Shown here piece by piece: positions 5,325 through 37,830 of a DNA stretch of 64,000 nt (its first letter is position 1; each line of letters opens with the position of its first letter). Made by a program: the position numbers and the translations under genes. Under the pieces are notes generated by a model. The model had not been told where the DNA came from and made no database searches. It saw nothing but the letters and a program-made list of their open reading frames with translations. This stretch comes from a virus: IMG/VR virus record IMGVR_UViG_3300020202_000061, positions 250,950 to 314,949 of that record; one strand, 5' to 3'.

Positions 5325-5858
5325 ATGACGCTTCTCGTAAACTTGTTTGGCGGCCCAGGATGTGGCAAAAGCACGACCCGCGCTGGAATCTTCCACAAAC
5401 TAAAGCTGCGTGGTTACAACGTAGAGGAAGCGCCTGAGTACGCGAAACAACTCACTTGGGAAAAGCGTGGGATGGCTCTGACCTGTCAGCCCTACGTCCT
5501 GGGCAAGCAGTTGTTTACGATCTACCGCTTGATGGGACAGGTCGAAGCAATCATCACGGATTCTCCGATCATTCTGGGTTCGGTCTATGCACCGCCAGAG
5601 GAATTGCCATCGTTTCATCAGTTTGTGATCGACAAGTTCAACTCGTTTGACTCGATCAATTTCTACATCAATCGCGTGAAACCCTATAACCCGGCCGGTC
5701 GTAACCAGGACCTGGAGGGGGCCAAGCAGATCGATGACGTGGTCTTGAAATACATCCAGGCCCACAATATTCCCTACGAGAATATTGATGGCGACGAAGG
5801 TGGTGCGATTGAGGCCGCCGCACTCGTCGGATATATGTTGGAACGCAGAAGAACCTGA
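5325..5858 (+). CDS. P-loop NTPase, putative nucleotide/(d)NMP kinase
   Basis: Walker A GGPGCGKST at the N-terminus; 177 aa. Confidence 0.6.
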   Translation: MTLLVNLFGGPGCGKSTTRAGIFHKLKLRGYNVEEAPEYAKQLTWEKRGMALTCQPYVLGKQLFTIYRLMGQVEAIITDSPIILGSVYAPPEELPSFHQFVIDKFNSFDSINFYINRVKPYNPAGRNQDLEGAKQIDDVVLKYIQAHNIPYENIDGDEGGAIEAAALVGYMLERRRT

Positions 5859-8752
5859 TGTACATCGATGCCGCACAAATCCAAAAGGATGGGAATCGTA
5901 TCTATGTGAGTGAGAGGGGCAAGGATGGTCAAAGGATCATCAAGTCCCAGATGCCTCCATATGTGCTCTACTATACCGACCCGGATGGCAATTTCACCAG
6001 TATCTACGGGGACAAGCTAAAGCGCGTCCACAATACCTCACGCCGTGCCCACGAGAACGATCTCCAATACTACAGGGATCGCGGGTGCAACATTTTCGAA
6101 TCCGACGTGAAGCCGGTCTTCCGTGTGTTGGAGGAGAAATACGGGCATCTTGATGATTTGCCCAGTTTGAATGTGGGCATCATCGATATCGAGGCCGACA
6201 AGGACCCGAAGAAGGGCTTCACCCGCGTGCGTGATCCCTACGCGATCATCAACGCGTTGACCATCTATAAGAAGCACCTGGACACCTACATCACTCTGAT
6301 TGTGCCACCACCGAATCTCACGGTCGCACAGACCGAATCGATTCTGGCCAATACCGGACATCAAGCAGAGGATGGTAGCTACGTCGAGGGGCCGGGCCGA
6401 GATGAGTTCTCCGATCTCACTGAGGAACATGGATACTTCGTCTGTGAGGATGAGGCCGATCTTCTTCTGACGTTTCTGGAACTGATCGAGGATATCGACG
6501 TGCTGACCGGTTGGAACAGCACGTTCTTCGATATTCCCTATCTGATCCAGCGCATGCGTATCGTGTTGGGCGGAGAATCCATCAACAAACTCGCGATGGA
6601 AGACGGCACGGATCAGCATCCGTATGATCCAACGTCGGAGAGTGTCACCCACATTCAGAGAATGAACCTGTTTCCGACCGTTCCCAAACAGCGCCATGTG
6701 GAACGTTTCGGCACGTTCGAGACCGTCTACGATCTGTGTGGTCGCGTCCATCTGGACTATCTGGAACTCTACCAGAAGTTCCCCCATGAGGAGCTTCACT
6801 CCTATACCCTGGACTTCGTTCTGAAGCATGAGGTCAAGCAGTCCAAGGTTGTCTACGAGGGGAGCCTCGACCAGCTATACCGTCTGAACATTCGTAGATT
6901 CGCCGCCTATAACCGTCAGGATGTTGCCGGGTTGAAGGCGTTGGACGCGAAGAAGAAATACATCGATCTGGCCAACGTCATGGCGCACATGGCCAGTGTG
7001 ACTCTGCGCGAAGTTCTGGGTTCGGTGGTGATCATCGAACAGGCCATCTTGAAGCGTCTGCACAAGGACAAGCTGATCTGTTTCGACAAGATGGAGAAGC
7101 AACACGACCTCCCAATTCCAGGTGCGTTCGTGGTCAACCCAGAGAAGGGTGATTATCGCTGCGTAGCCTCATACGACTTCAACTCGCTGTATCCGACGAC
7201 GATTCGTCTTGTCAATATCAGTCCGGAACAGATCATTGGTCAGTTCGATCTGAACCGTACCATCACGAAGTGGCGCAAACACTTTGTGGATTACGGTGGG
7301 GACACCGGCCGCAAGGATGCCGGAACCAAGGCATGGTCGCATTTCACCGGAGTGCTCGAATACCATGACGTGATCGATGAGACCGAGGAACAACTCACCC
7401 TGGTCTTCGAAGGCACTGGTGAAGAGATCACTCTGACCGGGAAGGAATGGAAAGAGGTCCTCAAGGAGAACAACTGGTCGATCAGCGGATTCGGCACGGT
7501 CTTCGATCTATCCCGAGAGGGTATCGTCACCAAGTGCATGACTGAGTGGTATGCGGACCGCGTGAAGCTCCAGGATCAGAAGAAGAAATACGGCAAGGCC
7601 CAGGAGGGTGTAAACGATCCGGATAGACTGAAGGAGTTGAAGGAGCTTGAAGCCTATTACGACATGCTCCAGCAGGCGAAGAAGCTGTTCCTGAACTCCA
7701 CTTACGGAGCCTACCTGAACTCGTATTTCCGCTTCAATGATCCCCGCTTGGGTGCGTCGGTCACGCTGAGTGGTCGTGTCATGACCAAGCACATGGTGAA
7801 GCAGACCTCCTATGTGATGACCGGGGTCTACGATTTTGATCGCCGCGCCATCATCTATGGTGACACTGACTCCTGCTACGCTACCATGCACTGGTATATG
7901 CAGCAGAATGGTATCGAGATCACCGACCGCAACATGGTGAAGCTCGCGGACGAACTGGGTGAGAAGATCAACGCCAGTATGCCTCCGTTCCTGGAAGGCG
8001 CGTTCCTGATCGACCAGAAGCGTGGTGAGATACTCGAAGCCGGTCGAGAGATCGTCGGTCGCCGTGGTCTGTTTAAGGACAAGAAGAAACGCTACGCTCT
8101 GCACATCATCGACAAGGAAGGCAAAACGGTGGACGATCTCAAGATCGTCGGTATGGAAACGCGCCGCTCAGACACTCCCAAGCATATCCAGGAGTTTCTC
8201 ATCCAGTGCCTTACCCAGACCATCAAGGAGAACAAATCTTATGCGGAGATTCGCCAGATCGTGGATGAATTCCGTGCAGGATTCCGCAAACTTGATCCCT
8301 GGCGCATCGGTTCGCCCGGCCGCGTCAAGAAGCTGGCCACCGCCACGAAGAAACACAACGTCTACAACAGTCGCACCGAGGATGGTGTGGTCGGGCTGGC
8401 CAAGCCAAACTCGCATTTCTACGTGAAGGCGGCACTCAACACGAATACCTTGATGACCCACTACAACGAGACCCGTTGGGACGTGATCCGTGACGGCGAT
8501 AAGGTCGAGGTTCTTTACCTTAGTCCGAACGAATTCGATATGGACGTGGTTGGCATCCGCACGGGTGAAACCTATGTCCCGGAGTGGTTCAAAACCCTCC
8601 CGGTGGACCGCGCCCGAATGGAGCAGAAATTGATCGATCAGAAACTCCACAACGTTCTTGGGGATGTTCTGGAGTGGGATTTTACCCCACAAACAAACTA
8701 TGCATCTGAAGTATTTGAGGAAAACACGGATTTCTACTCCATGGCGGGTTGA
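5858..8752 (+). CDS. family B DNA polymerase
   Basis: exo motif IIDIEADKD; motif B KLFLNSTYGAY (Kx3NSxYG); motif C IIYGDTDS; 964 aa. Confidence 0.9.
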   Translation: MYIDAAQIQKDGNRIYVSERGKDGQRIIKSQMPPYVLYYTDPDGNFTSIYGDKLKRVHNTSRRAHENDLQYYRDRGCNIFESDVKPVFRVLEEKYGHLDDLPSLNVGIIDIEADKDPKKGFTRVRDPYAIINALTIYKKHLDTYITLIVPPPNLTVAQTESILANTGHQAEDGSYVEGPGRDEFSDLTEEHGYFVCEDEADLLLTFLELIEDIDVLTGWNSTFFDIPYLIQRMRIVLGGESINKLAMEDGTDQHPYDPTSESVTHIQRMNLFPTVPKQRHVERFGTFETVYDLCGRVHLDYLELYQKFPHEELHSYTLDFVLKHEVKQSKVVYEGSLDQLYRLNIRRFAAYNRQDVAGLKALDAKKKYIDLANVMAHMASVTLREVLGSVVIIEQAILKRLHKDKLICFDKMEKQHDLPIPGAFVVNPEKGDYRCVASYDFNSLYPTTIRLVNISPEQIIGQFDLNRTITKWRKHFVDYGGDTGRKDAGTKAWSHFTGVLEYHDVIDETEEQLTLVFEGTGEEITLTGKEWKEVLKENNWSISGFGTVFDLSREGIVTKCMTEWYADRVKLQDQKKKYGKAQEGVNDPDRLKELKELEAYYDMLQQAKKLFLNSTYGAYLNSYFRFNDPRLGASVTLSGRVMTKHMVKQTSYVMTGVYDFDRRAIIYGDTDSCYATMHWYMQQNGIEITDRNMVKLADELGEKINASMPPFLEGAFLIDQKRGEILEAGREIVGRRGLFKDKKKRYALHIIDKEGKTVDDLKIVGMETRRSDTPKHIQEFLIQCLTQTIKENKSYAEIRQIVDEFRAGFRKLDPWRIGSPGRVKKLATATKKHNVYNSRTEDGVVGLAKPNSHFYVKAALNTNTLMTHYNETRWDVIRDGDKVEVLYLSPNEFDMDVVGIRTGETYVPEWFKTLPVDRARMEQKLIDQKLHNVLGDVLEWDFTPQTNYASEVFEENTDFYSMAG

Positions 8753-9579: not shown

Positions 9580-10232
9580 TGTTGAAGTGGTTTGGAAAAA
9601 AAGAGACCCCTCCGGCACCTGCTCCGACTCCCGTGGTGGAACAGAAAAAGATTTGGTTTCGGGTGGAGTTTCACCGCGCCGAGGATGGCTCGGTCTATCA
9701 CGAGGTTCAGACGGATCGTCGTTTTTTCGAGGATTTGGACCGCAAGTTCAAGGATCAGGACATCGCCTATGATCCTCTCATGGACGAGAAAACCAAGGTG
9801 GCCGTGTTTCTGCACGACTACCTGATGAAGACCATGGAGTATGATCGTCTGGTCCGCAACTTCATGTCGATGATCGGTGAACCCTATTTTCGTGTGTTGG
9901 TCGGACGTAAAACAAAGTCCACCGAGGTCACGGTGGATTCCGATTACAACAAACACCTGATCTACGATCTGGATAAAATTTATGCCAAGAATAAGGCTCC
10001 GTATGATCCGAACGCCGAGGAGCACGTGAAGATTGCGGTCTACCTCTATGACATCGTGAACCAGATCGCTCGTCAACACCTCCCCGAGGACGAGGAGGAA
10101 TTCACCCCTGATGATCCCATGATCAACATTCCTGCCCTGGCCGTACGTGGTGGGCAGGAGGTTAGGACCGTGGTGGACCTTGGCAACATCAATCCCGAAC
10201 AGACCGGAACCATAGTCGATGTCCGACAATAA
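9579..10232 (+). CDS. hypothetical protein with an internal duplicated domain
   Basis: two similar segments YDPLMDEKTKVAVFLHDYLMK and YDPNAEEHVKIAVYLYDIVNQ. Confidence 0.55.
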   Translation: MLKWFGKKETPPAPAPTPVVEQKKIWFRVEFHRAEDGSVYHEVQTDRRFFEDLDRKFKDQDIAYDPLMDEKTKVAVFLHDYLMKTMEYDRLVRNFMSMIGEPYFRVLVGRKTKSTEVTVDSDYNKHLIYDLDKIYAKNKAPYDPNAEEHVKIAVYLYDIVNQIARQHLPEDEEEFTPDDPMINIPALAVRGGQEVRTVVDLGNINPEQTGTIVDVRQ

Positions 10233-10800
10233 GATCGTTTTCATCCGCCATGGCGAATCCATGGGTAATGTGTGGGTGGGCGCTTACAAGAACGAAGCGG
10301 CAAATTTTCTGACCATCCGTGGGGTGAAACAGGTCGAGCTTGCTGCCATCGATCTGATCCGCCGTAACATCCGATTCGATCACGTAGTTACGTCCGGCTT
10401 GACCCGCGCTCGCCAGACCGCAACCACCCTGATGCAGACCATGGACGATTGGCAACGTCATTACGTGGTCGAGCCGCGCCTGAATGAGTGGGTCAAAGTT
10501 GGATACGTTCATGATCCCAGCATTCTGGTTCAGGATCGCAAGGATTTCATCCAGCGCGTGACCGACGCCTACAAGGAGGTGATTGCCCCACTGGACGGGA
10601 ATGTCCTAGTGGTCTCTCACTTCTTTGTGATGGAGGTGCTGTTCGAGCTTCTGGGATTCGGTGAGTACGGGAAAATCATTCACCAGCTTCCGAATGATTG
10701 GATTCCGAACGCTGTCCCCTACGTGTATGAACCGGGTAATTCCTGGCGTGTCCCTCGTCTGACCATGATCCACGCTTATGTGCCAGAGCCCCAGTACTAA
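10219..10800 (+). CDS. histidine phosphatase superfamily protein (phosphoglycerate mutase-like)
   Basis: RHGES catalytic motif at the N-terminus; GLTRARQTA; SHFF. Confidence 0.7.
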   Translation: MSDNKIVFIRHGESMGNVWVGAYKNEAANFLTIRGVKQVELAAIDLIRRNIRFDHVVTSGLTRARQTATTLMQTMDDWQRHYVVEPRLNEWVKVGYVHDPSILVQDRKDFIQRVTDAYKEVIAPLDGNVLVVSHFFVMEVLFELLGFGEYGKIIHQLPNDWIPNAVPYVYEPGNSWRVPRLTMIHAYVPEPQY

Positions 10801-11007: not shown

Positions 11008-11192
11008 GTGAGACTTGGCCCGGTTGGATCAGAGCGGTGTGGCCCGCCACAAAGCTTGTTCTCATTCGTAATGAAAATATGAACAAGGAAATCCGCGTCA
11101 GCAACGACCAGATCACTGGTCGAATCGTCATGCACGCTCATTGTCAAGTTACGGAAACTCCGGATTCTCCGGTATCAGTTGTGATCAACTGA
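11004..11192 (+). CDS. hypothetical small protein
   Basis: ORF 62 aa, ATGA-coupled. Confidence 0.4.
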   Translation: MSETWPGWIRAVWPATKLVLIRNENMNKEIRVSNDQITGRIVMHAHCQVTETPDSPVSVVIN

Positions 11193-11264
11193 ACATTTTT
11201 CCCACACTCCGAAAGTTATTTTTACATCGTGATCTAAAAGGTTTCTATGTTTAACGGAAACCCC

Positions 11265-11292
11265 TTGATGTGATCATTAAAGACCTTATGTT
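11265..11292 (+). promoter_or_regulatory. putative promoter of the prkA-yeaH-spoVR operon in an AT-rich intergenic region
   Basis: TTGATG 11265-11270; 16-nt spacer; TATGTT; followed by TATATA. Confidence 0.35.
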
Positions 11293-11370
11293 ACGCTATA
11301 TACTAAGAGGCACCGAGGGTTTCAGATGCCTCTATGGGGATTCCAAATCAACAACGGGGTCGAACAACGA

Positions 11371-13305
11371 ATGTCTAATCTCTTCGCGGATTTCAAGACA
11401 ACTTTCGAAAAAACCAGGAAAACCGAACTCTCTCTCCAGGAATACTTGGACCTGTGCAAACAGGATCGAATGGCTTACGCCTGGGCGGTGGAGAGAATGC
11501 TGGCGGCTATCGGCGAGCCCAAGCTAGTTGACACGTCCGAGGACCCGCGCCATTCCAGAATCTTCCTGAACCGCACCATCAAGGTGTATGACGTGTTCAA
11601 GGATTTCTACGGGATGGAGGCGACCATCGAAAAGATCGTCGCCTTCTTCATGAAGGCCGCTCAAGGTCTGGAAGAGAAGAAGCAGGTTCTCTATCTGATG
11701 GGGCCGGTTGGATCGGCTAAGTCCTCTCTGGCAGAGCGTCTCAAGGCTCTGATGGAGAAGATGCCGATCTACGTGCTCAAGGCGGGTGATCAAATCAGCC
11801 CGGTGTTCGAGAATCCCTTGGGTCTGTTCGATCCGAACGTGTGGAGTGATCGCCTCCAAGAGGAATACGGGATTCCTCGTCGTTATCTGACCGGGTTGAT
11901 GTCGCCTTGGGCGGTAAAGCGCCTGAACGAGGACTTCGACGGGGATATCAGCAAGTTCAGTGTGGTGAAGCTCTACCCGAGCAAGCTCAAGCAGATAGCG
12001 ATCTCCAAGGTCGAACCCGGTGACGAGAACAACCAAGACATTTCGTCTCTGGTCGGTAAGGTTGATATCCGCAAGCTGGCGGAGTTCTCCGCTCGTGATA
12101 CCGATGCCTACAGCTACTCCGGTGGTCTCTGCTTGGCCAACCAGGGCGTGCTGGAGTTCGTCGAGATGTTCAAGGCACCGATCAAGATGCTGCATCCGAT
12201 GCTCACCGCGACCCAGGAGGGCAACTACAACGGCACCGAGGCGATCTCTGGTATTCCGTTCCAGGGTGTGATTCTGGCCCACTCCAACGAATCCGAATGG
12301 GAGTCGTTCAAGAGCAACAAGAACAACGAGGCATTCCTCGACCGCATCAGCATCATCAAGGTCCCTTACTGCCTGCGTGTCACGGACGAGACCAAAATTT
12401 ACCAGAAGCTCTTGCGTGATTCGTCCCTGGACAAGGCTCCATGCACACCCAAGACGCTGGAATTGCTCTCCCAAATGAGCGTGCTTTCCCGTCTGATCTA
12501 TCCGGAGAACTCTTCGATCCATTCGAAGATGAAGGTCTACGATGGTGAGAACATCAAGGAAACCGATCCCTACGCCAAATCTGTTCAGGAATATCGTGAA
12601 CTGGCCGGGGTCAACGAGGGTATGACCGGTCTCAGCACCCGCTGGGCTTTCAAGGTGCTGTCATCGGTGTTCAATTATGATCCGAACGAGATCGGCGCGA
12701 ATCCGGTCCATCTGTTCCGTATCTTGGAGGACAAGATCACTGAGGAACAATTCCCGAAGGAAGTCGAAGAGGACCTTCGTGAACACCTCCAGTGGATCAA
12801 GGCCAAGTACATCGATTTCATCGGCAATGAAATCCAGGTTGCCTACCTGGAGTCCTACACCGAATACGGCCAGAACATGTTCGACCGCTACATCGTCTAT
12901 GCGGATCATTGGATCGAGGATCGGGACTATCGTGATTCCGAGACCGGCGAGATGTACAACCGCGAAACCCTGAATAAGGAACTCGAAAAGATCGAGAAGC
13001 CCTCCGGTATCGCGAATCCCAAGGAATTCCGTAACGAGGTGGTCAACTACTCTCTCCGTTACAAGGCCAACCACGGCAAGTATCCGAGGTGGAACTCCTA
13101 CGAGAAGCTCAAGGAAATCATCGAGAAGAAGATGTTCGCGAACATCTCTGATCTCCTGCCGGTGATCTCGTTCGAGAAGAAATCCTCCGAGGAGCACGAG
13201 AAGAAGCACAAGGATTTTGTGCAGCGCATGAAAGAGAAGGGATACAGCGAGCGCCAGACCCGTATCGTCGTGGACTGGTTCATGAAGGTACAGAAGTCCA
13301 ACTGA
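11371..13305 (+). CDS. prkA: PrkA/YeaG-family serine protein kinase
   Basis: N-terminus LQEYLDLCKQDRMAYAWAVERMLAAIGEP and P-loop YLMGPVGSAKSSLAERLK parallel E. coli YeaG; alternative start 11326. Confidence 0.85.
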   Translation: MSNLFADFKTTFEKTRKTELSLQEYLDLCKQDRMAYAWAVERMLAAIGEPKLVDTSEDPRHSRIFLNRTIKVYDVFKDFYGMEATIEKIVAFFMKAAQGLEEKKQVLYLMGPVGSAKSSLAERLKALMEKMPIYVLKAGDQISPVFENPLGLFDPNVWSDRLQEEYGIPRRYLTGLMSPWAVKRLNEDFDGDISKFSVVKLYPSKLKQIAISKVEPGDENNQDISSLVGKVDIRKLAEFSARDTDAYSYSGGLCLANQGVLEFVEMFKAPIKMLHPMLTATQEGNYNGTEAISGIPFQGVILAHSNESEWESFKSNKNNEAFLDRISIIKVPYCLRVTDETKIYQKLLRDSSLDKAPCTPKTLELLSQMSVLSRLIYPENSSIHSKMKVYDGENIKETDPYAKSVQEYRELAGVNEGMTGLSTRWAFKVLSSVFNYDPNEIGANPVHLFRILEDKITEEQFPKEVEEDLREHLQWIKAKYIDFIGNEIQVAYLESYTEYGQNMFDRYIVYADHWIEDRDYRDSETGEMYNRETLNKELEKIEKPSGIANPKEFRNEVVNYSLRYKANHGKYPRWNSYEKLKEIIEKKMFANISDLLPVISFEKKSSEEHEKKHKDFVQRMKEKGYSERQTRIVVDWFMKVQKSN

Positions 13306-13316
13306 GGGCTATCATA

Positions 13317-14606
13317 GTGACCACGGTCATTGACAGACGTAAGACCGACCGCCAGAAGAACCTCTCCAATAGGCAGAGGTTCATCAAAAGAGCCAAGGAA
13401 GCGATCAAGAAGTCGATCCGTGGAGCCATCCTCAATAAGGATCGCTCGATCAAAGACTCATCCGGCGGTAATGTTCGAATCCCCAACAAAGGGACGACAG
13501 AGCCGAATTTCCGCAATGGAGACGGTGGTCGTAAGATCATCGTTCGTCCGGGTAATCCAGGCACTGTGCCGGGTGACAAGATTCCACGTCCCAGAAAGGA
13601 TCAGACTTCGGGCCGTGGTAACAGTGATCCATCCAAAGACCCCGCTGAGTTGATGGATGAGTTCGAGTTCACGCTGACCCGTGAGGAATTTCTGGACTTC
13701 TTCTTTGAGGACCTGGAATTGCCCAACTTGGTCAAGACCGCCCTCAAAGAGGTGGTCGAGTACAAATGGTCCCGTTCGGGATTTGCCTCGGTCGGTATGC
13801 CGTCGAATCTCGACATTACCCGAACCTTCATCAATTCGATGGGTCGCCATTTCGCTCTGGCCGGAGCCTACCAGAAAAAGATCGACGAACTTCGCGCTAA
13901 TGGTGGATCGGAAGAGGATATCGCGCTCTGGGAGAAGAGGAAGCGGACCATCCCGTTCATGGATGACGTGGACCTGCGCTATCGCCTGTTTGTGAAGCAG
14001 CCCAAGCCGATCACCAAAGCGGTAATGTTCTGTCTGATGGACGTATCTGGCAGTATGGGCGAGTACGAGAAGGACTTGGCCAAGCGTTTCTTCATGCTCC
14101 TCTACATGTTTCTGGAGCGCAAATACGAGTCGGTCACCGTGGTGTTCATCCGTCATACCACCGAAGCCAAAGAGGTGGACGAGCAGGAGTTCTTCTACTC
14201 GAAAGAATCAGGTGGAACCGTGGTCAGCACGGCTCTGGAAATGACTGCTGATCTGATTCAGCGGCGCTTCAACAGTTCAGACTACAACATCTACGTGAGC
14301 CAGTGTTCGGACGGCGACAATGCCTACGATGACAACTCCGTGTGCACCCAGATCATCCGTGAGGATATTCTGCCTTATGTCCAGTATTTTGCGTATGTCC
14401 AGGTCGGACATCAGCGCGATGAGATGGCCAACATGTGGGGTGTGTTTGCGGGTCGTCTTGGGAACACCACGAGCACGAATTCCCTCTACGAGGTTTATAA
14501 GGAGATCGAGAAGAATACCTCCCATTTCAAGGTGAAGAACCTGAATGGTCCTGCCGACATCTACCCGGTGTTTCGCGAACTCTTTGAGAAGGACATCAAG
14601 GTATGA
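13317..14606 (+). CDS. yeaH: YeaH/YhbH family protein (DUF444, UPF0229)
   Basis: VIDRRKTDRQKNLSNRQRF…EFLDFFFEDLELPNL…VMFCLMDVSGSM…FFYSKESGGTVVS…DIYPVFRELF colinear with E. coli YeaH. Confidence 0.85.
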   Translation: MTTVIDRRKTDRQKNLSNRQRFIKRAKEAIKKSIRGAILNKDRSIKDSSGGNVRIPNKGTTEPNFRNGDGGRKIIVRPGNPGTVPGDKIPRPRKDQTSGRGNSDPSKDPAELMDEFEFTLTREEFLDFFFEDLELPNLVKTALKEVVEYKWSRSGFASVGMPSNLDITRTFINSMGRHFALAGAYQKKIDELRANGGSEEDIALWEKRKRTIPFMDDVDLRYRLFVKQPKPITKAVMFCLMDVSGSMGEYEKDLAKRFFMLLYMFLERKYESVTVVFIRHTTEAKEVDEQEFFYSKESGGTVVSTALEMTADLIQRRFNSSDYNIYVSQCSDGDNAYDDNSVCTQIIREDILPYVQYFAYVQVGHQRDEMANMWGVFAGRLGNTTSTNSLYEVYKEIEKNTSHFKVKNLNGPADIYPVFRELFEKDIKV

Positions 14607-16093
14607 GCCTGCTCTGGAATGATAATGAATGGACTTTCCCGCTCATCGACAAGGTCTACAAGGAGATCGAGCAGATCGGCGTGGGTGAGATGGGTCTGGA
14701 CATCTTCCCGAATCAGATCGAGGTCATCAGCAGTGATCAGATGCTGGACGCTTATGCAAGCCATGCCATGCCAGTCATGTATAAGCACTGGTCCTTTGGC
14801 AAGTCGTATTCGGTCAACAAGAAACTCTATGAGAACGGTCAGCAGGGTCTGGCCTACGAGGTCGTAATCAACTCGAATCCCTGCATTGCCTATCTCATGG
14901 AGGACAACACCATGACCATGCAGGCTTTGGTCATGGCCCATGCCAGCATCGGTCACAACAACTTCTTCAAGACTAACTACCTGTTCCAGCAGTGGACCGA
15001 TCCGGATGGGATCATCGACTACCTGATCTTCGCCAAGAATTATGTGGCGAAGTGTGAGGAGCGATACGGTGCCGAACGAGTCGAGGAAGTTCTCGATTCC
15101 TGTCACGCTCTCATGGACCAGGGTATGGACCGCTTTAAGCGAGCCCGCAAACGTTCCCGTCAGGAGGAGAAGCTCCGTGCGGCCGAACGTGAAGCCTATC
15201 ACCAAAGTCGTGTGAGTGAGCTTTGGCCGGACACCTGGAAGTCCGAGACCCCGGCCCAGAAGGAAGAACGCAAGAAGCGGATTCTTCCGGAGCCCGAGGA
15301 CAACATCCTCTACTTCATCGAGAAGAACTCGCCGATCCTGGAGCCGTGGGAACGAGAGATCGTTCGTATCGTCCGTAAGGTATCGCAGTATTTCTGGCCT
15401 CAGATGCAGACCCAGGTCGGTAATGAGGGCTGGGCCACCCATACCCATTACTTCATTATGAATCGTCTCTACGAGAAGGGTCTGATCTCGGACGGTTCTC
15501 TGTTGGAGTTCTTCAAGTCCCACACGGGCGTTATCGCGCAGTATCGCATGCAGCGTCTGAACCCGTACTGCCTGGGATTCAACATTTTCCGCGACATCAA
15601 GCGTATGTGCGAGAAACCCACCGATGAGGATCGTGAATGGTTCCCCGATCTGGTCGGGATGAACTGGCTGGAAGCCGCGAAGGACGCGCGTGAGAACTAC
15701 AAGGATGAGAGCCTGATCCTCCAGTACCTCAGCCCCAAGGTGATCCGCGATCTTAAGCTTTTCTCGATCCTGGATGATTACGGCACGGACTCGATGAACT
15801 ATATCGTCCAGAACATCCACGACCGGGAAGGCTACAAGGAAGTTCGTCGATCCCTCTCTCGCAACTACGACATCAACATGAGAATTCCACAGATTCAGGT
15901 GTCGGATGTCAATGTGGATGGGGATCGCAAACTGATCCTTCGCCATACCCGTCACAACTATGTGCCGCTGGATCAGGCCGATCTCAAGGAAACTCTCCTC
16001 CATGTGAGGCGTCTCTGGGGGTTTGCGGTGCGTCTGGACTTCTACAATCCCGGCGCGGTCAGTCCCACGGATTGGGTAGCGGTGGGTGAATAA
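14603..16093 (+). CDS. spoVR: SpoVR/YcgB family protein
   Basis: 496 aa; conserved SpoVR stretches (MYKHWSFGKSY, GHNNFFK, GWATHTHY). Confidence 0.85.
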   Translation: MSLLWNDNEWTFPLIDKVYKEIEQIGVGEMGLDIFPNQIEVISSDQMLDAYASHAMPVMYKHWSFGKSYSVNKKLYENGQQGLAYEVVINSNPCIAYLMEDNTMTMQALVMAHASIGHNNFFKTNYLFQQWTDPDGIIDYLIFAKNYVAKCEERYGAERVEEVLDSCHALMDQGMDRFKRARKRSRQEEKLRAAEREAYHQSRVSELWPDTWKSETPAQKEERKKRILPEPEDNILYFIEKNSPILEPWEREIVRIVRKVSQYFWPQMQTQVGNEGWATHTHYFIMNRLYEKGLISDGSLLEFFKSHTGVIAQYRMQRLNPYCLGFNIFRDIKRMCEKPTDEDREWFPDLVGMNWLEAAKDARENYKDESLILQYLSPKVIRDLKLFSILDDYGTDSMNYIVQNIHDREGYKEVRRSLSRNYDINMRIPQIQVSDVNVDGDRKLILRHTRHNYVPLDQADLKETLLHVRRLWGFAVRLDFYNPGAVSPTDWVAVGE

Positions 16094-16096
16094 GTT

Positions 16097-16126
16097 TTGA
16101 CAAACCCAAGGGTTTTGGGGTAGAAT
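16097..16126 (+). promoter_or_regulatory. sigma70-like promoter
   Basis: TTGACA 16097-16102; 18-nt spacer aacccaagggttttgggg; TAGAAT. Confidence 0.6.
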
Positions 16127-16133
16127 AGAATTC

Positions 16134-16385
16134 ATGATCTTCGATCTGGAACACGCTCGAAAGGCTCGTAAGAAAGGCTCCGGAAGTCTGCTCAAGGAGT
16201 GGATTCCAACCTCGCCCCAAGTGGTGGAGGATTTCCGAGTCGGCGACAAGGTGAAGTTCCGCGACGGCAAGACCGGCACCATTCTGTGCTTCGGAGCGAG
16301 TTCCATGCGGGGACCATTACTGGCCCTGGTCGCTGTGAATGGTGTCAACTACACCTGTCCGATCTCGGAACTCCGCTCGGCCTAA
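16134..16385 (+). CDS. hypothetical protein
   Basis: ORF 83 aa just downstream of the promoter. Confidence 0.5.
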   Translation: MIFDLEHARKARKKGSGSLLKEWIPTSPQVVEDFRVGDKVKFRDGKTGTILCFGASSMRGPLLALVAVNGVNYTCPISELRSA

Positions 16386-16417: not shown

Positions 16418-16423
16418 AGCGTT

Positions 16424-16495
16424 GGGCTTGTAGCTCAGTGGTAGAGCAGAGTGTTGATAACGCTAAGGTCGAAGGTTCGATCCCTTCCAGGCCCA
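16424..16495 (+). tRNA. tRNA-Ile (GAT)
   Basis: acceptor gggcttg/caggccc; D-arm tagctcagtggtagagc; anticodon stem (g)agtg/cgct(a) with loop ttGATaa; T-arm gaaggttcgatcccttc. Confidence 0.8.
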
Positions 16496-16509
16496 CCCAA
16501 TCAAAGAAT

Positions 16510-16594
16510 GCCCGTATGGCGAAACGGCTATACGCGGGACACTTAAAACGTCCTCCTGAAAGGGGTGTGGGTTCGAATCCCTCTACGGGCACCA
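16510..16594 (+). tRNA. tRNA-Leu (TAA), class II with long variable arm
   Basis: acceptor gcccgta/tacgggc; Leu-like D-arm tggcgaaacggctatacgc; anticodon loop ctTAAaa; long variable arm; T-arm gggttcgaatccc; CCA. Confidence 0.8.
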
Positions 16595-16611
16595 ATTCCG
16601 AGGAAATTCAT

Positions 16612-16764
16612 ATGTCCGTGTTATTTTGGATCATCGCGATTATTCTGGGTATTTGGGCCTTAGGAACAATTTTCTGCTGGGCGACCATCGCTCAGTTCGA
16701 AAATGCTTCGCAATGGGGCAAATTCTGCAAGTCTCTGACTTGGCCGTTCATGCTGTTTGACTGA
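16612..16764 (+). CDS. small membrane protein (50 aa)
   Basis: ATG 16612 with RBS gaggaaattc; hydrophobic FWIIAIILGIWALGTIFCW. Confidence 0.35.
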   Translation: MSVLFWIIAIILGIWALGTIFCWATIAQFENASQWGKFCKSLTWPFMLFD

Positions 16765-17003
16765 TGCCGTTACCACCGATTCAACGCTATCAAGTCGCTG
16801 GAAATTGGGGTGTAGGTCAGCCCGGTATCTGGTGGTCCTCAGACGCCCTGATCCAGGATATGCAAGCGGCTTGGAATCGCCTACCAGCGGACCCGGTCTA
16901 CGACCGACTCATAGCCAAGTTCACCCATCGCGCCCGCCTAGACGCTCAGAAGCGGCAACAGCCTTCTCGTGGGAGGAGCCGATCTTCGCGTAGAGATCGT
17001 TAG
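16764..17003 (+). CDS. hypothetical protein (overlaps the 3' end of the convergent HNH gene)
   Basis: ORF 79 aa; start overlaps upstream stop; convergent overlap of about 80 nt lowers confidence. Confidence 0.25.
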   Translation: MPLPPIQRYQVAGNWGVGQPGIWWSSDALIQDMQAAWNRLPADPVYDRLIAKFTHRARLDAQKRQQPSRGRSRSSRRDR

Positions 17004-17244
17004 GGTGCATCCCAACGATACATTTATGCCCGTCTGAGATATGGAAGAGTTCCGCATCGTAATGGTGTTGAGGGCATAATGTGATTCCGTTCTCCTTCAC
17101 GTAGCCTCCGTTCGGCATGAGGCTGCGATCCGTAATATGGTGAGCGTCGAGATTCTTGGTTTCCGAACAGAATACGCACCTGTGGCCATCGCGGGCAAAC
17201 ACGGCGTCACGGAACTTCTGGCGGATCAGTTTCTTCTGGTTCAT
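16921..17244 (-). CDS. HNH homing endonuclease
   Basis: CVFCSETKNLDAHHI…NGITLCPQHH HNH zinc-finger motif. Confidence 0.75.
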   Translation of the reverse strand: MNQKKLIRQKFRDAVFARDGHRCVFCSETKNLDAHHITDRSLMPNGGYVKENGITLCPQHHYDAELFHISDGHKCIVGMHPNDLYAKIGSSHEKAVAASERLGGRDG

Positions 17245-17468
17245 AACACGATCCTCAAATCGGATTCACAGCATTCTTTCCAGGTCTTGTAATTGGCGTC
17301 GGGTGAACGTGGAGTTCCCCACCAATCCGGATGGTAAATCCCAAGAAACCGACCATCGATTTCCGAATGCCCGTTGGTGGTATATCCCCAGGATCGGGCG
17401 ATTCGCTCGTAGTCGGCCTCGATCAGTTTCTTCTTGGGCCGAGTAATCTGATGGAGTTCGTGGACCAT
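17241..17468 (-). CDS. hypothetical protein coupled to the HNH endonuclease
   Basis: internal ATG of ORF 17241..17801 (the upstream part would overlap tRNA-Trp); stop overlaps the HNH start (ATGA). Confidence 0.4.
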   Translation of the reverse strand: MVHELHQITRPKKKLIEADYERIARSWGYTTNGHSEIDGRFLGIYHPDWWGTPRSPDANYKTWKECCESDLRIVL

Positions 17469-17470
17469 GT

Positions 17471-17722
17471 CTATCTCCCGTTGATCTTTCCGCTGGTGAA
17501 GTCGTGGAACTGGAAGGTCCAGGCTACCGGGCAAACCCCGATCAGTGGGTGTGCCACACAATTGTGGGTGAACCACCAGAAATGATGCACCAGGAGTGAT
17601 TTCTTCAACAGCTTGAACAAACGGATGCGATAGTGGAATCGTTCTTGTGAGGTCTGGTGAGCAAAATCCATCTGGTCCCCCTTGGTTATTCCCAAGATAT
17701 CCGAGAAACCTCTTGACTTCAA
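17471..17722 (-). CDS. hypothetical protein
   Basis: ORF 83 aa; stop adjacent to the downstream start. Confidence 0.35.
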   Translation of the reverse strand: MKSRGFSDILGITKGDQMDFAHQTSQERFHYRIRLFKLLKKSLLVHHFWWFTHNCVAHPLIGVCPVAWTFQFHDFTSGKINGR

Positions 17723-17741
17723 GCAGGGGATTCGCTAAATA
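17713..17741 (+). promoter_or_regulatory. sigma70-like promoter driving the tRNA-Trp-like gene
   Basis: TTGACT 17713-17718; 17-nt spacer tcaagcaggggattcgc; TAAATA. Confidence 0.6.
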
Positions 17742-17764
17742 TCCCTCACAACGGATTGCTTTGC

Positions 17765-17840
17765 AGGCGTGTAGCTCAATTGGAAGAGCAGCGGCCTCCA
17801 AATCCGAAGGTTGGGGGTTCGAGTCCCTCCTCGCCTGCCA
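17765..17840 (+). tRNA. tRNA-Trp (CCA)-like with weak stems
   Basis: 76 nt ending gCCA; D-arm gctcaattggaagagc; T-arm gggggttcgagtccctc; anticodon loop ctCCAaa, but the anticodon stem has only 3 bp and the acceptor has one T·T mismatch. Confidence 0.5.
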
Positions 17841-17931
17841 AGCAATCCCATCTCGGGCCGCCTGCGTGACCGTTCCAGGAGGTAAGAGGCAAGGTCGTTA
17901 ATATGCCCCGCCCGATCTGAAAGGTTTCCTG

Positions 17932-18138
17932 ATGATTCTTGGTCTGAACACGAGCATTTCTGGAATGCTGGTGGGATTTACTCTGATCGGAATCGCATTG
18001 CTCGTGCCGGGTCCGGCCGGGTTTCATGCTCTCTGCATGATATTGGGAGCGGGTCTGGTTGGGGTTTGTGTCCTCCATTGGCTCGCTCTTGTCTTGGATC
18101 GATTGGTCAAACGCCTTCAAGGGAATCGTCCAAGATGA
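17932..18138 (+). CDS. small membrane protein
   Basis: ORF 68 aa, two hydrophobic helices. Confidence 0.45.
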   Translation: MILGLNTSISGMLVGFTLIGIALLVPGPAGFHALCMILGAGLVGVCVLHWLALVLDRLVKRLQGNRPR

Positions 18139-18392
18139 GTGGGGTTCCCTACTGGTTCAACGAACGTGTGAACAAGCCGATTCTGATCGAGGGGCGTGAA
18201 ACGATCTTGCGCGATGCCTACTGCGTGGGATGCCGCTATCACAGCCCGAACTCGGACGAACTCATCCTGGTCACCGACATGGGCGAGTTTAACACGTCCG
18301 ACCACAAGTTCGAGCTTCCACCCCTGACCAGGAAGAAACCCCGCAATAACCGGGCACCGGTTCGCGGTCCTCGGTCGATTTTGGGGCGCTAA
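18135..18392 (+). CDS. hypothetical protein
   Basis: ATG 18135 overlapping the upstream TGA. Confidence 0.45.
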   Translation: MSGVPYWFNERVNKPILIEGRETILRDAYCVGCRYHSPNSDELILVTDMGEFNTSDHKFELPPLTRKKPRNNRAPVRGPRSILGR

Positions 18393-20277: not shown

Positions 20278-20363
20278 GCCGGGATGGCTGAGTGGTCGAA
20301 AGCAGGCGTTTCGTAAGCGTCCGAAGCAATTCCTCGCAGGTTCGAATCCTGTTCCCGGCTCCA
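20278..20363 (+). tRNA. class II (Ser-type scaffold, long variable arm) tRNA with anticodon CGT
   Basis: 86 nt; acceptor gccggga/tcccggc; Ser-like D-arm tggctgagtggtcgaaagc; anticodon stem ggcgt/gcgtc with loop ttCGTaa; variable arm about 15 nt; T-arm gcaggttcgaatcctgt; CCA. Confidence 0.7.
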
Positions 20364-20501: not shown

Positions 20502-21026
20502 ATGAACGTGATCAAACCACCGCGTCCACTGACAGGGATTGATGAGTTTTTACCCATCTTGTTCCTGGCCGGGACCATCGACATGGGCGATTCCGTGGAT
20601 TGGCAGGCTGATACCGCCACCCGTCTCAAGCAGTATCCGGGCACCATCCTGAATCCGCGTCGTGACGCCTGGGACAAGTCCTGGAACCAGGACATTAACA
20701 ATCCTGAGTTTGCGTATCAGGTCAATTGGGAACTCGATGGTCTGGACATGGCCACGCTGATCCTGATCAACTTCGAACCGGATTCGAAGTCCCCGATCTC
20801 ATTGTTGGAGCTAGGGCTCCACGCGAATGACCGTGGTCTGATCGTGCGCTGCCCCAAGGGCTATTGGCGTAAGGGTAACGTGGACATCGTCTGCGCCCGC
20901 CATCGTGTGCCGGTCTATGAGGACCTGGATCAAGCCGTGGCCGAGATCACGGTGCGTCTGCAAGCCCAACAGAAATCAATTACCAGTTTCTACCACCAGA
21001 TGGCCGTGGACACAGGTCAGGCATAG
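20502..21026 (+). CDS. hypothetical protein (possibly nucleoside 2-deoxyribosyltransferase-like)
   Basis: ORF 174 aa; LAGTIDMG-type N-terminal motif; weak assignment. Confidence 0.45.
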   Translation: MNVIKPPRPLTGIDEFLPILFLAGTIDMGDSVDWQADTATRLKQYPGTILNPRRDAWDKSWNQDINNPEFAYQVNWELDGLDMATLILINFEPDSKSPISLLELGLHANDRGLIVRCPKGYWRKGNVDIVCARHRVPVYEDLDQAVAEITVRLQAQQKSITSFYHQMAVDTGQA

Positions 21027-21991
21027 ACCTCGGCATCGTGATTCGGTGCGGTGTCGAAGATCGACAACTCCGTGATCGTCTTGAGCACGGTCAGACCGAG
21101 GTCCTCTCTCAGGTGATAGAGCATGGTCTTGAGGTTGTCATCGTAGGCCGACTTCGTGATTCCCGCGTGCCTATAGGTGAGGATCAGCGGAGCGTTCTGC
21201 TTGGCACGGTTGACCGACATGAACAGGGCGTAGCGTTCCTGATCTTCATCCTTGAAGGAGAGATCGACAGCCTGTCGGATGATATCCTCCGCTCCGGGCG
21301 TGACGATCTCGATATGGGTTTCCAGATACACACCGGGCTCTCCGCCCACGGGCTTCCCCTCGGTCTCTAACTGCTTGATGATGGGATGCCAGGGTAGAGT
21401 CTCGATCTTTTGTCGAACCACATTGAGCATGGTATGGCGAGTGAGATCGTAGACCAGCTTCGTCATCACATCCATGGCTTCCTGCTGGGTTCCGAACACC
21501 ACCTTCGAACACATCACATCGGCCTTGAACGGGTCATACCCACGAAGCACATGATAGGGCTCGATATCCAGGCATTTCATCTCGTTTCGGAAACAGAAGT
21601 CTCGGAACGCAAATAACACCTCTTCGTGATTCAACACTTCCGAACCCACCGTGATGTGAATCTCGAACGGGATGGGAAACTTGACGGTGCCTTCCTGTGC
21701 CTGTAAACCGCTCCACTTATTCATTTTTGTGCGAAGCATGTCGTCGAGGTCTTGATCGTTGAACCCGAGCGAGTATCCGATGCTGAGTGCGGCCAGGATC
21801 ACATCCGCAACTTCATCCAGGACGTGATGACGTGAGGTCAATCGGTGCAGGGTGTCGGGTGCGCCCTCCAGTGGGAGAATGGCCTGATTGAGTTCACCAG
21901 TTTCGGCCGCCAGCTTGTTACCCTTCTGACCGAGTGTCTTACGGTCGCGCTCGGTGAGAACCTTGATGAAATCCAGAGTTTCCTGACGCAT
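21017..21991 (-). CDS. MazG-like nucleotide pyrophosphohydrolase domain protein with a C-terminal extension of unknown function
   Basis: N-terminal all-alpha MazG-like region (KVLTERDRKTLGQKGNKLAAETGELNQAI…LDEVADVILAAL); 324 aa on the minus strand. Confidence 0.55.
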   Translation of the reverse strand: MRQETLDFIKVLTERDRKTLGQKGNKLAAETGELNQAILPLEGAPDTLHRLTSRHHVLDEVADVILAALSIGYSLGFNDQDLDDMLRTKMNKWSGLQAQEGTVKFPIPFEIHITVGSEVLNHEEVLFAFRDFCFRNEMKCLDIEPYHVLRGYDPFKADVMCSKVVFGTQQEAMDVMTKLVYDLTRHTMLNVVRQKIETLPWHPIIKQLETEGKPVGGEPGVYLETHIEIVTPGAEDIIRQAVDLSFKDEDQERYALFMSVNRAKQNAPLILTYRHAGITKSAYDDNLKTMLYHLREDLGLTVLKTITELSIFDTAPNHDAEVYA

Positions 21992-29737: not shown

Positions 29738-29745
29738 AGCCTTTT

Positions 29746-29836: not shown

Positions 29837-29930
29837 GCATGGCCGTTCCTGGAACCCTTGAAGTTCCGATTGGTGGCCGTCAAACCGCTCGGGAGCGGGC
29901 TGAATCTGAAAAGGACCAGCGAACACCCAT

Positions 29931-37796: not shown

Positions 37797-37830
37797 ATAT
37801 TGGAAACCACTCGGTATTCCTGTAAAATGC

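Follow-up and report, generated by a model that had tools for sequence, protein, structure and literature searches.

A complete three-gene module homologous to the bacterial PrkA/YeaG, YeaH (DUF444) and SpoVR/YcgB proteins is carried by a roughly 350–400 kb jumbo myovirus, a 64 kb stretch of which, hereafter the window, is analysed here. The module is a real, functional feature, intact and ameliorated to the phage genome. In bacteria, the trio constitutes one functional unit that is turned on by starvation and stationary-phase regulators and, to our knowledge, it is among the most widely conserved bacterial operons for which there is no mechanism. On balance, we regard it as probable that the phage genes form a functional auxiliary operon, driven by a phage promoter, whose products would make an ATP-driven protein-remodelling or protein-processing machine and impose the output of the starvation pathway on the host.

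The three open reading frames are adjacent on the plus strand, in the order PrkA, YeaH, SpoVR that matches most bacteria (Table 1), and profile searches place all of them in the named families. In Pfam, PrkA matches PF08298 (4e-170, 566 bits) and PF06798 (3e-63, 214 bits), both with cut-offs of 25, while YeaH matches PF04285 (9e-143, 477 bits) over model positions 2–417 of 418, and SpoVR matches PF04293 (5e-161, 536 bits) and PF24755 (4e-21, 75 bits). In NCBIfam, PrkA reaches 1116 bits against the equivalog PRK15455 (cut-off 576; positions 2–643 of 644), YeaH 507 bits against PRK05325.1-2 (cut-off 396) and SpoVR 736 bits against PRK11767 (cut-off 679). These matches are far above chance and, as they exceed all curated thresholds, they bear out the first-pass annotation, which had described three consecutive plus-strand genes colinear with YeaG/PrkA, YeaH/YhbH and YcgB/SpoVR. 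PHROG families already exist for all three proteins, that of PrkA being phrog_22605. The genes had also been described as translationally coupled, which is literally the case for YeaH and SpoVR, joined by a 4-nt ATGA overlap (14603–14606), and plausible for PrkA and YeaH, where 11 nt containing GAGGG separate the stop at 13305 from the YeaH GTG at 13317.

Table 1. Features of the module and of its boundaries, in window coordinates.
Feature	Position	Strand	Remarks
Terminator-like hairpin TCAGTTGTGATCAACTGA with T-rich tail	11175..11200	+	Terminator scan, consensus match only
Putative sigma-70-type promoter	11265..11292	+	-35 TTGATG 11265-11270, 16-nt spacer, -10 TATGTT 11287-11292
Probable 5' leader, ~70 nt	11293..11370	+	Contains alternative in-frame ATG at 11326
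PrkA/YeaG homolog	11371..13305	+	644 aa; AAA+ ATPase domain and PrkA C-terminal domain
YeaH/YhbH (DUF444) homolog	13317..14606	+	429 aa; GTG start
SpoVR/YcgB homolog	14603..16093	+	496 aa; zincin-like fold; without HExxH
Strong sigma-70-like promoter of next transcription unit	16097..16126	+	TTGACA-18-TAGAAT, 11/12; promoter scan

The Walker A motif of PrkA reads GPVGSAKS (residues 111–118), with Lys-Ser kept and the GG before the lysine changed to SA. By sequence the P-loop is intact, including the Walker A lysine, which B. subtilis PrkA cannot do without (K108; PMC9512850). Over the whole protein, 206 of the 224 residues invariant in bacteria are retained. A GS[AS]KS or GAAKS P-loop replaces GGGKS in 24 of 69 viral sequences, 22 of which fall in one viral clade, and GGGKS is kept in the other 45 viral copies, whereas all 69 proteobacterial references read GGGKS. 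The GSAKS variant is probably active, because a solved PrkA homolog in the PDB (9xip, E = 2e-52) carries GSAKS too; no publication on this structure was found in a literature search. How the bacterial pathway works biochemically is contested between a kinase, an AAA+ protease and a plain AAA+ ATPase, which counts against the explanation favoured here. Published work has claimed E. coli YeaG as a kinase and B. subtilis PrkA as an AAA+ protease (PMC9512850), whereas B. anthracis PrkA has been reported to have no protease active-site residues and to be neither kinase nor protease; it was described as a Clade III AAA+ protein that oligomerises with ATP and has a pore-loop aromatic residue (PMC13001217). 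In the phage PrkA, no Pkinase-type Pfam family indicative of a Hanks-type Ser/Thr kinase was detected among hits at E <= 0.01, nor was any Lon_C or peptidase family indicative of a Lon-type ATP-dependent protease detected in Pfam or NCBIfam.

Structure modelling gives YeaH a vWA fold with a complete MIDAS (D242-x-S-x-S246, T301 and D332), while its basic N-terminal region (residues ~1–146), predicted with low confidence, may be disordered. SpoVR is modelled with a zincin-like fold, and one sole significant SpoVR-like match was obtained from the viral fold library. The invariant motifs HAxxGH (113–118) and NEG[W/C]AT (274–279) are present, and H113, H118, E275 and H282 are putative metal-binding residues. 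As the zinc-binding, catalytic HExxH motif is absent anywhere in its 496 residues, SpoVR is not classed as a peptidase; that it may not be one counts against the favoured explanation. A literature search found no paper describing SpoVR as a metallopeptidase. A probable mini-intein has also been observed, placed exactly in the invariant NEG motif of SpoVR. The MIDAS of YeaH, the zincin-like SpoVR without HExxH and this probable mini-intein provide concrete residues for mutation.

The intergenic region preceding the module (11193–11370) has 40% GC, against 54.6% in the window, in agreement with the AT-rich region noted earlier. The promoter proposed within it agrees with the consensus at only 8 of 12 positions and was missed by a standard promoter scan; nonetheless, L082, a sister phage, shares both hexamers and CCCCTTGATGT with the window despite divergence in the spacer and flanks, which supports the promoter as a phylogenetic footprint. 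It constitutes a weaker variant of a CCTTGACA-17-TAnAnT promoter family found across the window, and a conserved TATATA lies 3' of the putative -10 (11297–11302). The original promoter call is thereby upheld by conservation and weakened by its consensus match, the latter also speaking against the favoured explanation. A ggtttc/gaaacc hairpin, also proposed at the outset, is present at 11240–11262 and has been discarded, as it is not conserved in L082 and is no better than chance, with the same count reached in 18% of shuffles. The terminator-like hairpin further upstream overlaps the stop of a small ORF and delimits the transcription unit on its 5' side; terminator-like sites in its region show no enrichment over shuffles. 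The 3' boundary is the strong promoter that follows SpoVR, similar sites forming a family across the window.

The homologous start of PrkA is at 11371, whereas a gene caller took the in-frame ATG at 11326 for a 659-aa homolog. Comparison with L082 suggests that 11326–11370 is 5'UTR, because it contains compensating +1/-1 indels within highly conserved nucleotides. No regulatory RNA was detected in the leader by Rfam, which matched only downstream tRNAs, and folding of the leader was no better than that of shuffles (z = 0.01). A candidate sigma-54 site (GGCAC...TTTCA, 11312–11325) was rejected, its spacing being wrong and the site being deleted in L082. With respect to RpoS or NtrC/sigma-54-type control, the element conserved with L082 is sigma-70-like and no conserved sigma-54 site was found upstream.

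The setting of the module is viral and not bacterial. The window encodes a T4-type PolB nearest to those of jumbo myoviruses (~34% identity) and 17 scattered tRNAs. For 20 neighbouring ORFs, PHROG and Pfam returned mostly no match, which supports ORFan-rich phage DNA. No capsid or terminase gene was found within the 64 kb, and a near-identity search with 25 kb of the window gave no match among GenBank phages. An exact 48-mer probe likewise had no match in IMG/VR, so that the window's genome was found in neither collection. In JGI and ENA metagenomes, a 100%-identical SpoVR occurs on a 401 kb contig and a 100%-identical YeaH on a 347 kb contig, and L082 (a 409 kb contig) has the same synteny, with PolB and a His-phosphatase followed by PrkA-DUF444-SpoVR; these lengths are those of jumbo phages (>200 kb). 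The module is 90–94% identical to that of L082, where neighbouring genes range from 48 to 94%, and dN/dS is 0.045–0.074 (0.074 for PrkA) with dS of 0.6–0.9. The trio is thus under strong purifying selection, and its proteins retain 92–97% of the residues that are invariant in bacteria, among them the Walker A lysine and the MIDAS.

The first-pass annotation had considered the module not to be a standard phage function. This holds for most phages, a PrkA homolog being present in 17 of 50,697 GenBank phage records, but the trio recurs in jumbo and huge phages, in PHROGs and in at least 103 IMG/VR contigs. All IMG/VR loci long enough to show gene order carry the three genes in the same order, with non-bacterial flanks. 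The trio is also present in RsoM2USA (ORF30/29/28), in the ~640 kb huge phages LR745206 and LR756504 and, reordered, in Thermus phages. Module flanks include the phage auxiliary genes PhoH and ThyA, with PhoH at most 8 kb away in 15 IMG/VR loci; a recurrent 223-aa neighbour was considered as MazG, an assignment unsupported by Pfam. A 39-member viral clade has a bootstrap of only 47 and a within-clade divergence equal to that between viruses and bacteria, so that viral monophyly is weakly supported and the trio may have been acquired once or several times. The related jumbo phages 121Q, SCTP-2 and Phosso do not carry the module, which is therefore dispensable, a point against the favoured explanation. 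No paper treating the trio as a phage module was found in the searchable literature, where this recurrent accessory module of large phages is barely discussed; the copy in the window is not a one-off.

Several other explanations have been weighed. That the module is bacterial DNA, be it host contamination, part of a chimeric assembly, the flank of a prophage or a passenger recently acquired and without function, is effectively refuted. Many proteobacterial homologs at 63–67% identity would fit such an origin, as would the record of Enterobacter phage LAU1, which begins with yeaG-yeaH at its very end, probably as host flank. Nonetheless, no bacterial homolog exceeds ~67%, relatives at 69–93% lie on 9–409 kb metagenomic contigs that are probably phage, and L082 has the same phage gene order at the dS given above. 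GC and GC3 of the module match the phage, its codon usage correlates with the phage pool at r = 0.86–0.91 (mean of other genes, 0.75), and 0 of 95 window flank ORFs match bacterial flanks, against 42% in a bacterial control; purifying selection on the trio points the same way. It is very unlikely that the phage proteins act as dominant-negative decoys that co-assemble with host PrkA, YeaH and YcgB and disable the host starvation response. The virus-specific P-loop change, concentrated in one clade, is what such decoys might display, yet the Walker A lysine is retained along with almost every other invariant residue, 9xip has the same loop, most viral copies retain GGGKS, and a decoy has no need for all three proteins at dN/dS of about 0.05.

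A role in the phage's own assembly, with the AAA+, vWA and zincin-fold proteins serving as a chaperone or maturation machine, for instance in head morphogenesis or the processing of packaged proteins, and not in host physiology, is considered unlikely. In Thermus phage Lalka27b the trio lies among head and packaging genes, which indicates a different role, at least there, and counts against the favoured explanation. However, in the window, L082 and RsoM2USA the module stands amid replication, nucleotide-metabolism and ORFan genes and not structural ones, the majority of related jumbo phages assemble in its absence, and near full-length, host-type orthologs with so many invariant residues kept fit bacterial clients better than phage-specific ones. 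It is also quite unlikely that the trio is a conflict weapon which brings about a dormant or altered cell state that excludes competing phages, or which removes host defence proteins. AAA+/vWA ternary systems are frequent in conflict systems, the PrkA of phage phiLo has a weak match to PF20030 (bpMoxR), and the sweep of a yeaG mutation was seen in one E. coli line under T7 selection (PMC10044975). Against this, yeaG sweeps also occurred under iron selection without phage (PMC10044975), PADLOC gave no match to any of the three proteins at E <= 0.01, and in bacteria the trio is a stress operon found widely on chromosomes and not an island-borne defence cassette.

The auxiliary-operon explanation draws on the bacterial trio. 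The earlier annotation held that the bacterial genes work as a trio, in agreement with published cofitness in six species (10.1101/072470), and a role in starvation has been reported for YeaG (PMC4664914). However, bacterial mutant phenotypes of the trio are not conserved between species (10.1101/072470), which leaves the output of the pathway undefined and counts against this explanation. The proposed operon would consist of the terminator-like hairpin, its own weak sigma-70-type promoter, the ~70-nt leader and three tightly packed genes. In the infected cell, PrkA, YeaH and SpoVR would assemble into a remodelling or processing machine of the bacterial type, in which, if MoxR-type AAA+/vWA pairs are a guide, the YeaH MIDAS would link SpoVR or a client protein to the PrkA ring. 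Reading of the phage promoter by host RNA polymerase would yield the pathway output regardless of the RpoS/NtrC state of the host, and the phage would thus reprogram a host stress pathway, holding a nutrient-limited cell in a physiological state in which the lengthy infection cycle of so large a phage can be sustained. Within this scheme we infer that a complex forms, when transcription takes place, which proteins are clients and how the host is affected.

The complete trio is kept under strong purifying selection in well over a hundred genomes, from large phages of at least two deep lineages and from Thermus phages, and such retention argues that the three proteins suffice as a unit and that the virus profits from what this unit puts out. 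A bolder and rather doubtful proposal is that the trio is a split FtsH-like machine, comprising a Clade III unfoldase, a MIDAS adaptor and a non-canonical zincin subunit, which would have been repeatedly captured by large phages, with its P-loop retuned in one lineage, and would process host proteins and override starvation shutdown in very long infections. If so, the phage copies would constitute a constitutively expressed handle on the clients and chemistry of a pathway that is conserved across bacteria and has been obscure for ~30 years. The phage copies also offer experimenters naturally "constitutive" versions of the trio, and both RsoM2USA and the Thermus phages can be cultivated.

When compared to the bacterial YeaG-YeaH-YcgB (E. 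coli) and PrkA-YhbH-SpoVR (Bacillus) systems, the phage module matches in its three families and in their order, with lengths of 644, 429 and 496 aa against 644, 428 and 505 for the NCBIfam models, and identities to proteobacterial copies of 63–67% for PrkA, about 45–50% for YeaH and about 55–59% for SpoVR. It differs in being virus-encoded, with a putative sigma-70-like phage promoter, whereas the bacterial operon is under RpoS or NtrC/sigma-54 control. The cultivated 344 kb jumbo myovirus RsoM2USA of Ralstonia (MG752970; PMC8504454) has the same gene order and a PolB among the closest to that of the window, within a shared, weakly supported viral clade; at 55%, 37% and 50% identity, its trio is a distant relative with a GGGKS-type P-loop. 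All three of its genes are "hypothetical" in GenBank, and the paper describing it placed PrkA and SpoVR, from BLAST, in different functional categories, with the trio unrecognised as a unit (PMC8504454). The cultivated Thermus phages phiYS40, TMA, phiLo and Lalka8/27a/27b carry all three families adjacently, but in the order DUF444-SpoVR-PrkA, with sizes (326–374, 448–617 and 602–632 aa) unlike those of the window and a PrkA only ~28% identical; in Lalka27b, the trio lies between portal/minor-head genes and TerL. Their trio was probably acquired independently, from an operon of the Thermus type.

Among AAA+ systems, MoxR-type AAA+/vWA pairs (NorQ-NorD, RavA-ViaA, CbbQ-CbbO) differ in that PrkA is reported as Clade III, outside the MoxR clade (PMC13001217), has an extra C-terminal PrkA domain and has an obligatory third, zincin-fold partner. 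FtsH/YME1 is a Clade III AAA+ protein fused to an M41 zincin peptidase, and the trio, with its Clade III AAA+ protein (PMC13001217) and zincin-fold SpoVR, conceptually places the same activities on separate chains; unlike FtsH/YME1, however, SpoVR has no HExxH, the polypeptides are separate, perhaps bridged by the vWA protein, and protease activity of the system is disputed. PhoH and spoVR are known as single genes from host starvation regulons in phages; the present case likewise has a lytic-type phage with genes of a host stress regulon, but here a whole three-gene pathway is carried. Viral spoVR has been reported as the most abundant sporulation-category AMG in marine OMZ viromes (PMC8940887). 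For the proteobacterial-type operon a "sporulation" reading is unlikely, because its bacterial carriers do not sporulate; the filing of viral spoVR as a "sporulation AMG" is thereby corrected, the carriers here having proteobacterial-type operons of non-sporulating lineages.

On all the sequence criteria applied, the three proteins belong to the PrkA, YeaH/DUF444 and SpoVR families, and on the same criteria their three-gene unit is an instance of the known PrkA-YeaH-SpoVR module. The first-pass annotation had placed three + strand ORFs here and assigned them to these families; the ORFs were recovered where it had placed them, all above the NCBIfam equivalog cut-offs, and the Pfam and NCBIfam profile searches agree with the assignment for all three. 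An 11-nt gap containing GAGGG lies between the PrkA stop and the YeaH GTG, and YeaH and SpoVR overlap by ATGA. The PrkA start proposed at 11371 is the homologous start. The in-frame ATG at 11326, upstream of it, is preceded by a better Shine-Dalgarno sequence and was the start chosen by a gene caller for P0001, a 659-aa homolog. Since the 11326-11370 stretch shows compensating +1/-1 indels against the diverged sister phage (locus L082), with the nucleotides nonetheless conserved, it is taken to be a non-coding leader. A 595-aa ORF runs antisense to SpoVR (14561-16348, -), with further long antisense ORFs at 11524-12522 and 13458-14156; these are most likely spurious, a by-product of the high GC3 of the sense genes.

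The intergenic region before PrkA, which had been described as AT-rich, does have a GC content of 40%, against 54.6% for the window as a whole. The promoter that had been proposed there, TTGATG-16-TATGTT at 11265-11292, matches the consensus at 8/12 positions and is uncalled by a standard scan, but both hexamers are conserved in the sister phage together with a CCCC prefix, the spacer and flanks having diverged. Strong CCTTGACA-17-TAnAnT sites recur along the + strand of the window, and the proposed promoter is a weaker member of their family; because of this kinship and conservation it is regarded as probably genuine. The ggtttc/gaaacc hairpin reported beside it is present, but it is neither significant nor conserved. 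A terminator-like hairpin upstream of the module and a strong promoter downstream of it (see the table) indicate that the three genes constitute their own transcription unit. Strong sigma-70-like sites of the form (C)CTTGACA-17/18-TAnAnT occur at 898, 16097, 18406, 25093, 31064, 37831 and 53618, all on the + strand, several of them directly upstream of genes or tRNA clusters; this family likely represents early phage promoters used by the host RNAP.

Coordinates of the features discussed, in the window unless another locus is named
Feature	Coordinates	Strand	Basis
PrkA/YeaG	11371-13305 (alternative start 11326)	+	Pfam PF08298 4e-170, PF06798 3e-63; NCBIfam PRK15455 1116 bits (cut-off 576)
YeaH (DUF444)	13317-14606	+	Pfam PF04285 9e-143; NCBIfam PRK05325.1-2 507 bits (cut-off 396)
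SpoVR/YcgB	14603-16093	+	Pfam PF04293 5e-161, PF24755 4e-21; NCBIfam PRK11767 736 bits (cut-off 679)
Terminator-like hairpin, upstream of module	11175-11192		scan
Strong promoter, downstream of module	16097-16126		scan
tRNA clusters	259-420, 16423-16594, 17765-17840, 20278-20363, 24999-25084, 29650-30022, 40543-42020	+	
GapR-like DNA-binding protein	4068-4385		annotation in L082
Thymidylate-kinase-like AAA_28 protein	5325-5858		
T4-type family B DNA polymerase (PolB)	5858-8752		
Histidine-phosphatase-superfamily gene	10219-10800		PF00300, 1e-14
MazG-like pyrophosphatase	21017-21991	-	weak match
SPFH/Band-7 protein	31125-32900		
GT4 glycosyltransferase	36804-37796		Pfam
Peptide deformylase	37800-38297		Pfam, 3e-44
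Amidoligase-domain protein	46924-48372	-	
Example IMG/VR neighbour, locus L006	15978-16883		
Example IMG/VR neighbour, locus L047	7029-8015		
Example IMG/VR neighbour, locus L059	6444-7079		

It had been allowed that the contig might be a bacterial fragment; examined on this point, the window is viral by its tRNAs, PolB, neighbouring genes, related contigs and the gene order of the sister phage. Seventeen tRNA genes are present in small clusters among short ORFs, all on the + strand; Asn and Ile are duplicated, Ser has three isoacceptors and Arg four, and ~330 nt downstream of SpoVR lie tRNA-Ile and tRNA-Leu. The best PolB matches, at ~32-34% identity, are from jumbo myoviruses (Phosso, RsoM2USA, SCTP-2 and 121Q-like phages). 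When 20 larger neighbours were scanned against PHROG, 14 were without a match, and those matched are auxiliary genes and genes of nucleotide metabolism, of phage type (thymidylate-kinase-like, MazG-like, SPFH/lipoprotein, a GTP-binding-domain protein and one family of unknown function), with one further, weak match to a DNA-repair exonuclease. A metagenomic contig of 401,308 bp encodes a protein 100% identical to SpoVR and one of 347,504 bp a protein 100% identical to YeaH, and the sister genome, a 409,210-bp JGI contig, carries PolB, two ORFans, the His-phosphatase, two small ORFs, PrkA, DUF444 and SpoVR in the order of the window, its PrkA being 93% identical. A stretch of ~570 nt with two small ORFs separates the histidine-phosphatase gene from the module downstream of it, an arrangement kept in L082; the gene is not recurrent at the other viral module loci, and it may be linked in function to the 'kinase' module. 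The 64 kb window was found to contain no capsid or terminase gene, and a virion hallmark is one that we infer for its phage, which belongs to a previously undeposited jumbo-phage lineage.

Public genomes and PHROGs already show phage carriage of the module, and viromics has noted it in part. Among 50,697 GenBank phage records, a PrkA homolog is found in 17 and a SpoVR homolog in 9. In the cultivated Ralstonia jumbo phage RsoM2USA, ORF30-29-28 form the module in the window's order, all three labelled 'hypothetical' in GenBank; its description reports PrkA and SpoVR from BLAST, in separate functional categories and unlinked (PMC8504454). PrkA and SpoVR homologs are also present in four 'uncultured phage' genomes of 595-642 kb (YeaH confirmed in 3/3 examined), and a PrkA homolog in 11 Thermus phage records, with phiLo (L168, 1223-6171) and Lalka27b (L169, 1633-5851) having a Pfam-confirmed trio in the order DUF444-SpoVR-PrkA. 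PHROG families exist for all three proteins, each labelled 'unknown function'. In IMG/VR, a close PrkA relative has been detected on at least 103 contigs, 18 of which are at least 100 kb long, and among the 80 loci examined every sufficiently long one carries the full trio in the window's order. Nor are the loci ordinary stretches of bacterial DNA: per viral locus, only 0-2 of ~15 flank ORFs hit the flanks in a set of 80 bacterial loci, against 42% of flank ORFs in the bacterial controls. Genes that recur beside the viral module encode PhoH (15 loci, always downstream), an HNH endonuclease (14), thymidylate synthase (13) and members of an unassigned 223-aa family (12, always upstream). In viromes of an oxygen-minimum zone, spoVR was counted first in abundance among 'sporulation AMGs' (PMC8940887); a full-text literature search found no paper describing the trio as a phage module. 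In the 642 kb huge phage LR756502.1, PrkA-YeaH (L165) lies ~245 kb from SpoVR (519989-521401), and in E. coli the trio is likewise split over two loci (yeaGH, ycgB). The 30.8 kb record of Enterobacter phage LAU1 (MN688132.1) has yeaG-yeaH at its extreme end (55-2969), with 64% identity to the window PrkA; this is probably the host chromosomal flank of a prophage and not phage-borne, and the record inflates database counts.

In a concatenated neighbour-joining tree of 138 complete modules, most viral modules fall within two virus-only clades, one of 39 members including the window, RsoM2USA and the huge phage LR745206 (bootstrap 47) and one of 23 members (bootstrap 91). The window pairs with L082 (bootstrap 100), and the pair is joined by L002, a 137 kb IMG/VR contig (bootstrap 95). 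The 39-member clade is placed with Gamma- and Betaproteobacterial sequences (bootstrap 87), where long-branch effects are possible because divergence within the viral clade (0.70) equals that from viral to bacterial modules (0.71) and exceeds that among bacteria (0.48). It can be said that transfers of the module are old, that the whole unit has been kept and exchanged by phages, and that the Thermus-phage trio is a separate, reordered lineage.

The predicted fold classes of the trio are AAA+ (PrkA), vWA/MIDAS (YeaH) and zincin-like (SpoVR); a Hanks-type kinase, a Lon protease and a canonical zincin peptidase were rejected, their defining motifs being absent. In the 636 kb huge phage LR756504 (L164), SpoVR (16492-18372) has a 129-aa in-frame insertion exactly between NEG and CAT of the invariant motif. 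The insertion starts with CLVEGS (Cys), ends with FINHN (His-Asn) and is followed by Cys; Pfam Intein_splicing matches it below threshold (E = 3e-4). It is probably a mini-intein that marks a site of critical function. Inteins typically occupy functionally critical sites, and the position of this one supports the importance of the NEG motif. In the same genome, extra ORFs separate PrkA, YeaH and SpoVR. A PrkA homolog has been solved (PDB 9xip/9xiq/9xir, E = 2e-52), a recently deposited 692-aa 'Serine protein kinase' with 30 chains in 3 entries, for which a literature search found no paper. Kinase activity of E. coli YeaG is cited as reported in a study that describes the B. subtilis PrkA as an ATP-dependent Lon-like casein protease requiring the Walker A K108 (PMC9512850). 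For B. anthracis PrkA, neither kinase nor protease activity was found, and the protein is reported to belong to Clade III of the AAA+ proteins, to have an aromatic residue in its pore loop, to form oligomers with ATP and to lack protease residues (PMC13001217).

The three genes are one unit by their behaviour in six bacterial species (10.1101/072470), and lie within starvation and stationary-phase regulons (PMC4664914). The main explanation, which we favour with moderate confidence, is that their proteins would form an ATP-driven remodelling or processing machine that a phage promoter would free from host RpoS/NtrC control, so that the phage would impose the output of the starvation pathway on a nutrient-limited host over a long infection; the latent period of RsoM2USA is 270-min (PMC8504454). 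The recurrence of PhoH near the module adds weak guilt-by-association for a starvation theme. A service to the phage's own assembly is unlikely; it is suggested by Lalka27b, in which the trio lies between portal/minor-head genes and TerL, which hints at a morphogenesis or packaging link in the Thermus-phage lineage. Inter-phage or anti-defence conflict is quite unlikely as its role, the module having no PADLOC match, on which ground a known defence system was also rejected.

A dominant-negative decoy would fit the virus-specific P-loop GS[AS]KS/GAAKS, yet is very unlikely. The Walker A motif of the window PrkA reads GPVGSAKS (residues 111-118, window 11701-11724), and GPVGSAKS, GSSKS or GAAKS replaces GPVGGGKS in 24/69 viral modules (among them L082, L002, L006/7, L023, L052, L056, L067, L068 and L081) and 0/69 bacterial references, 22 of the 24 belonging to one viral clade. 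The decoy reading is weakened because the solved homolog 9xip also carries GSAKS and all three genes are constrained: against the sister phage, dN/dS is 0.074 for PrkA, 0.065 for YeaH and 0.045 for SpoVR, at a dS of 0.6-0.9. Their amino acid identity to it is 90-94% (PolB 90%), with neighbouring ORFs at 48-94% and one small ORF alone above the module genes. Residues invariant in 69 bacterial homologs are kept at 206/224 positions in PrkA, 68/70 in YeaH and 86/91 in SpoVR. GC, GC3 and codon usage of the module are within the phage's own distribution, and its codon usage correlates with the phage pool at r = 0.86-0.91, where other genes average 0.75. Bacterial homologs reach a maximum of ~67% identity, and all relatives closer than this (69-93%) come from metagenomic contigs, 9-409 kb long, that are probably phage. 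The module is neither contaminant nor passenger, and contamination or passenger DNA is hardly credible as its explanation; its three intact, strongly constrained genes form an autonomous transcription unit, the sigma-70-like promoter of which is conserved.

What is added here is that large phages are shown to carry the complete trio widely, from ancient times and under strong selection, and that its anatomy is described at the level of folds. The phage copies make the long-standing question of what job this ubiquitous operon does more tractable by experiment. For the proposed machine, MoxR/vWA pairs are among the closest analogies, and FtsH/YME1 is the closest for the combination of an AAA+ with a zincin fold.
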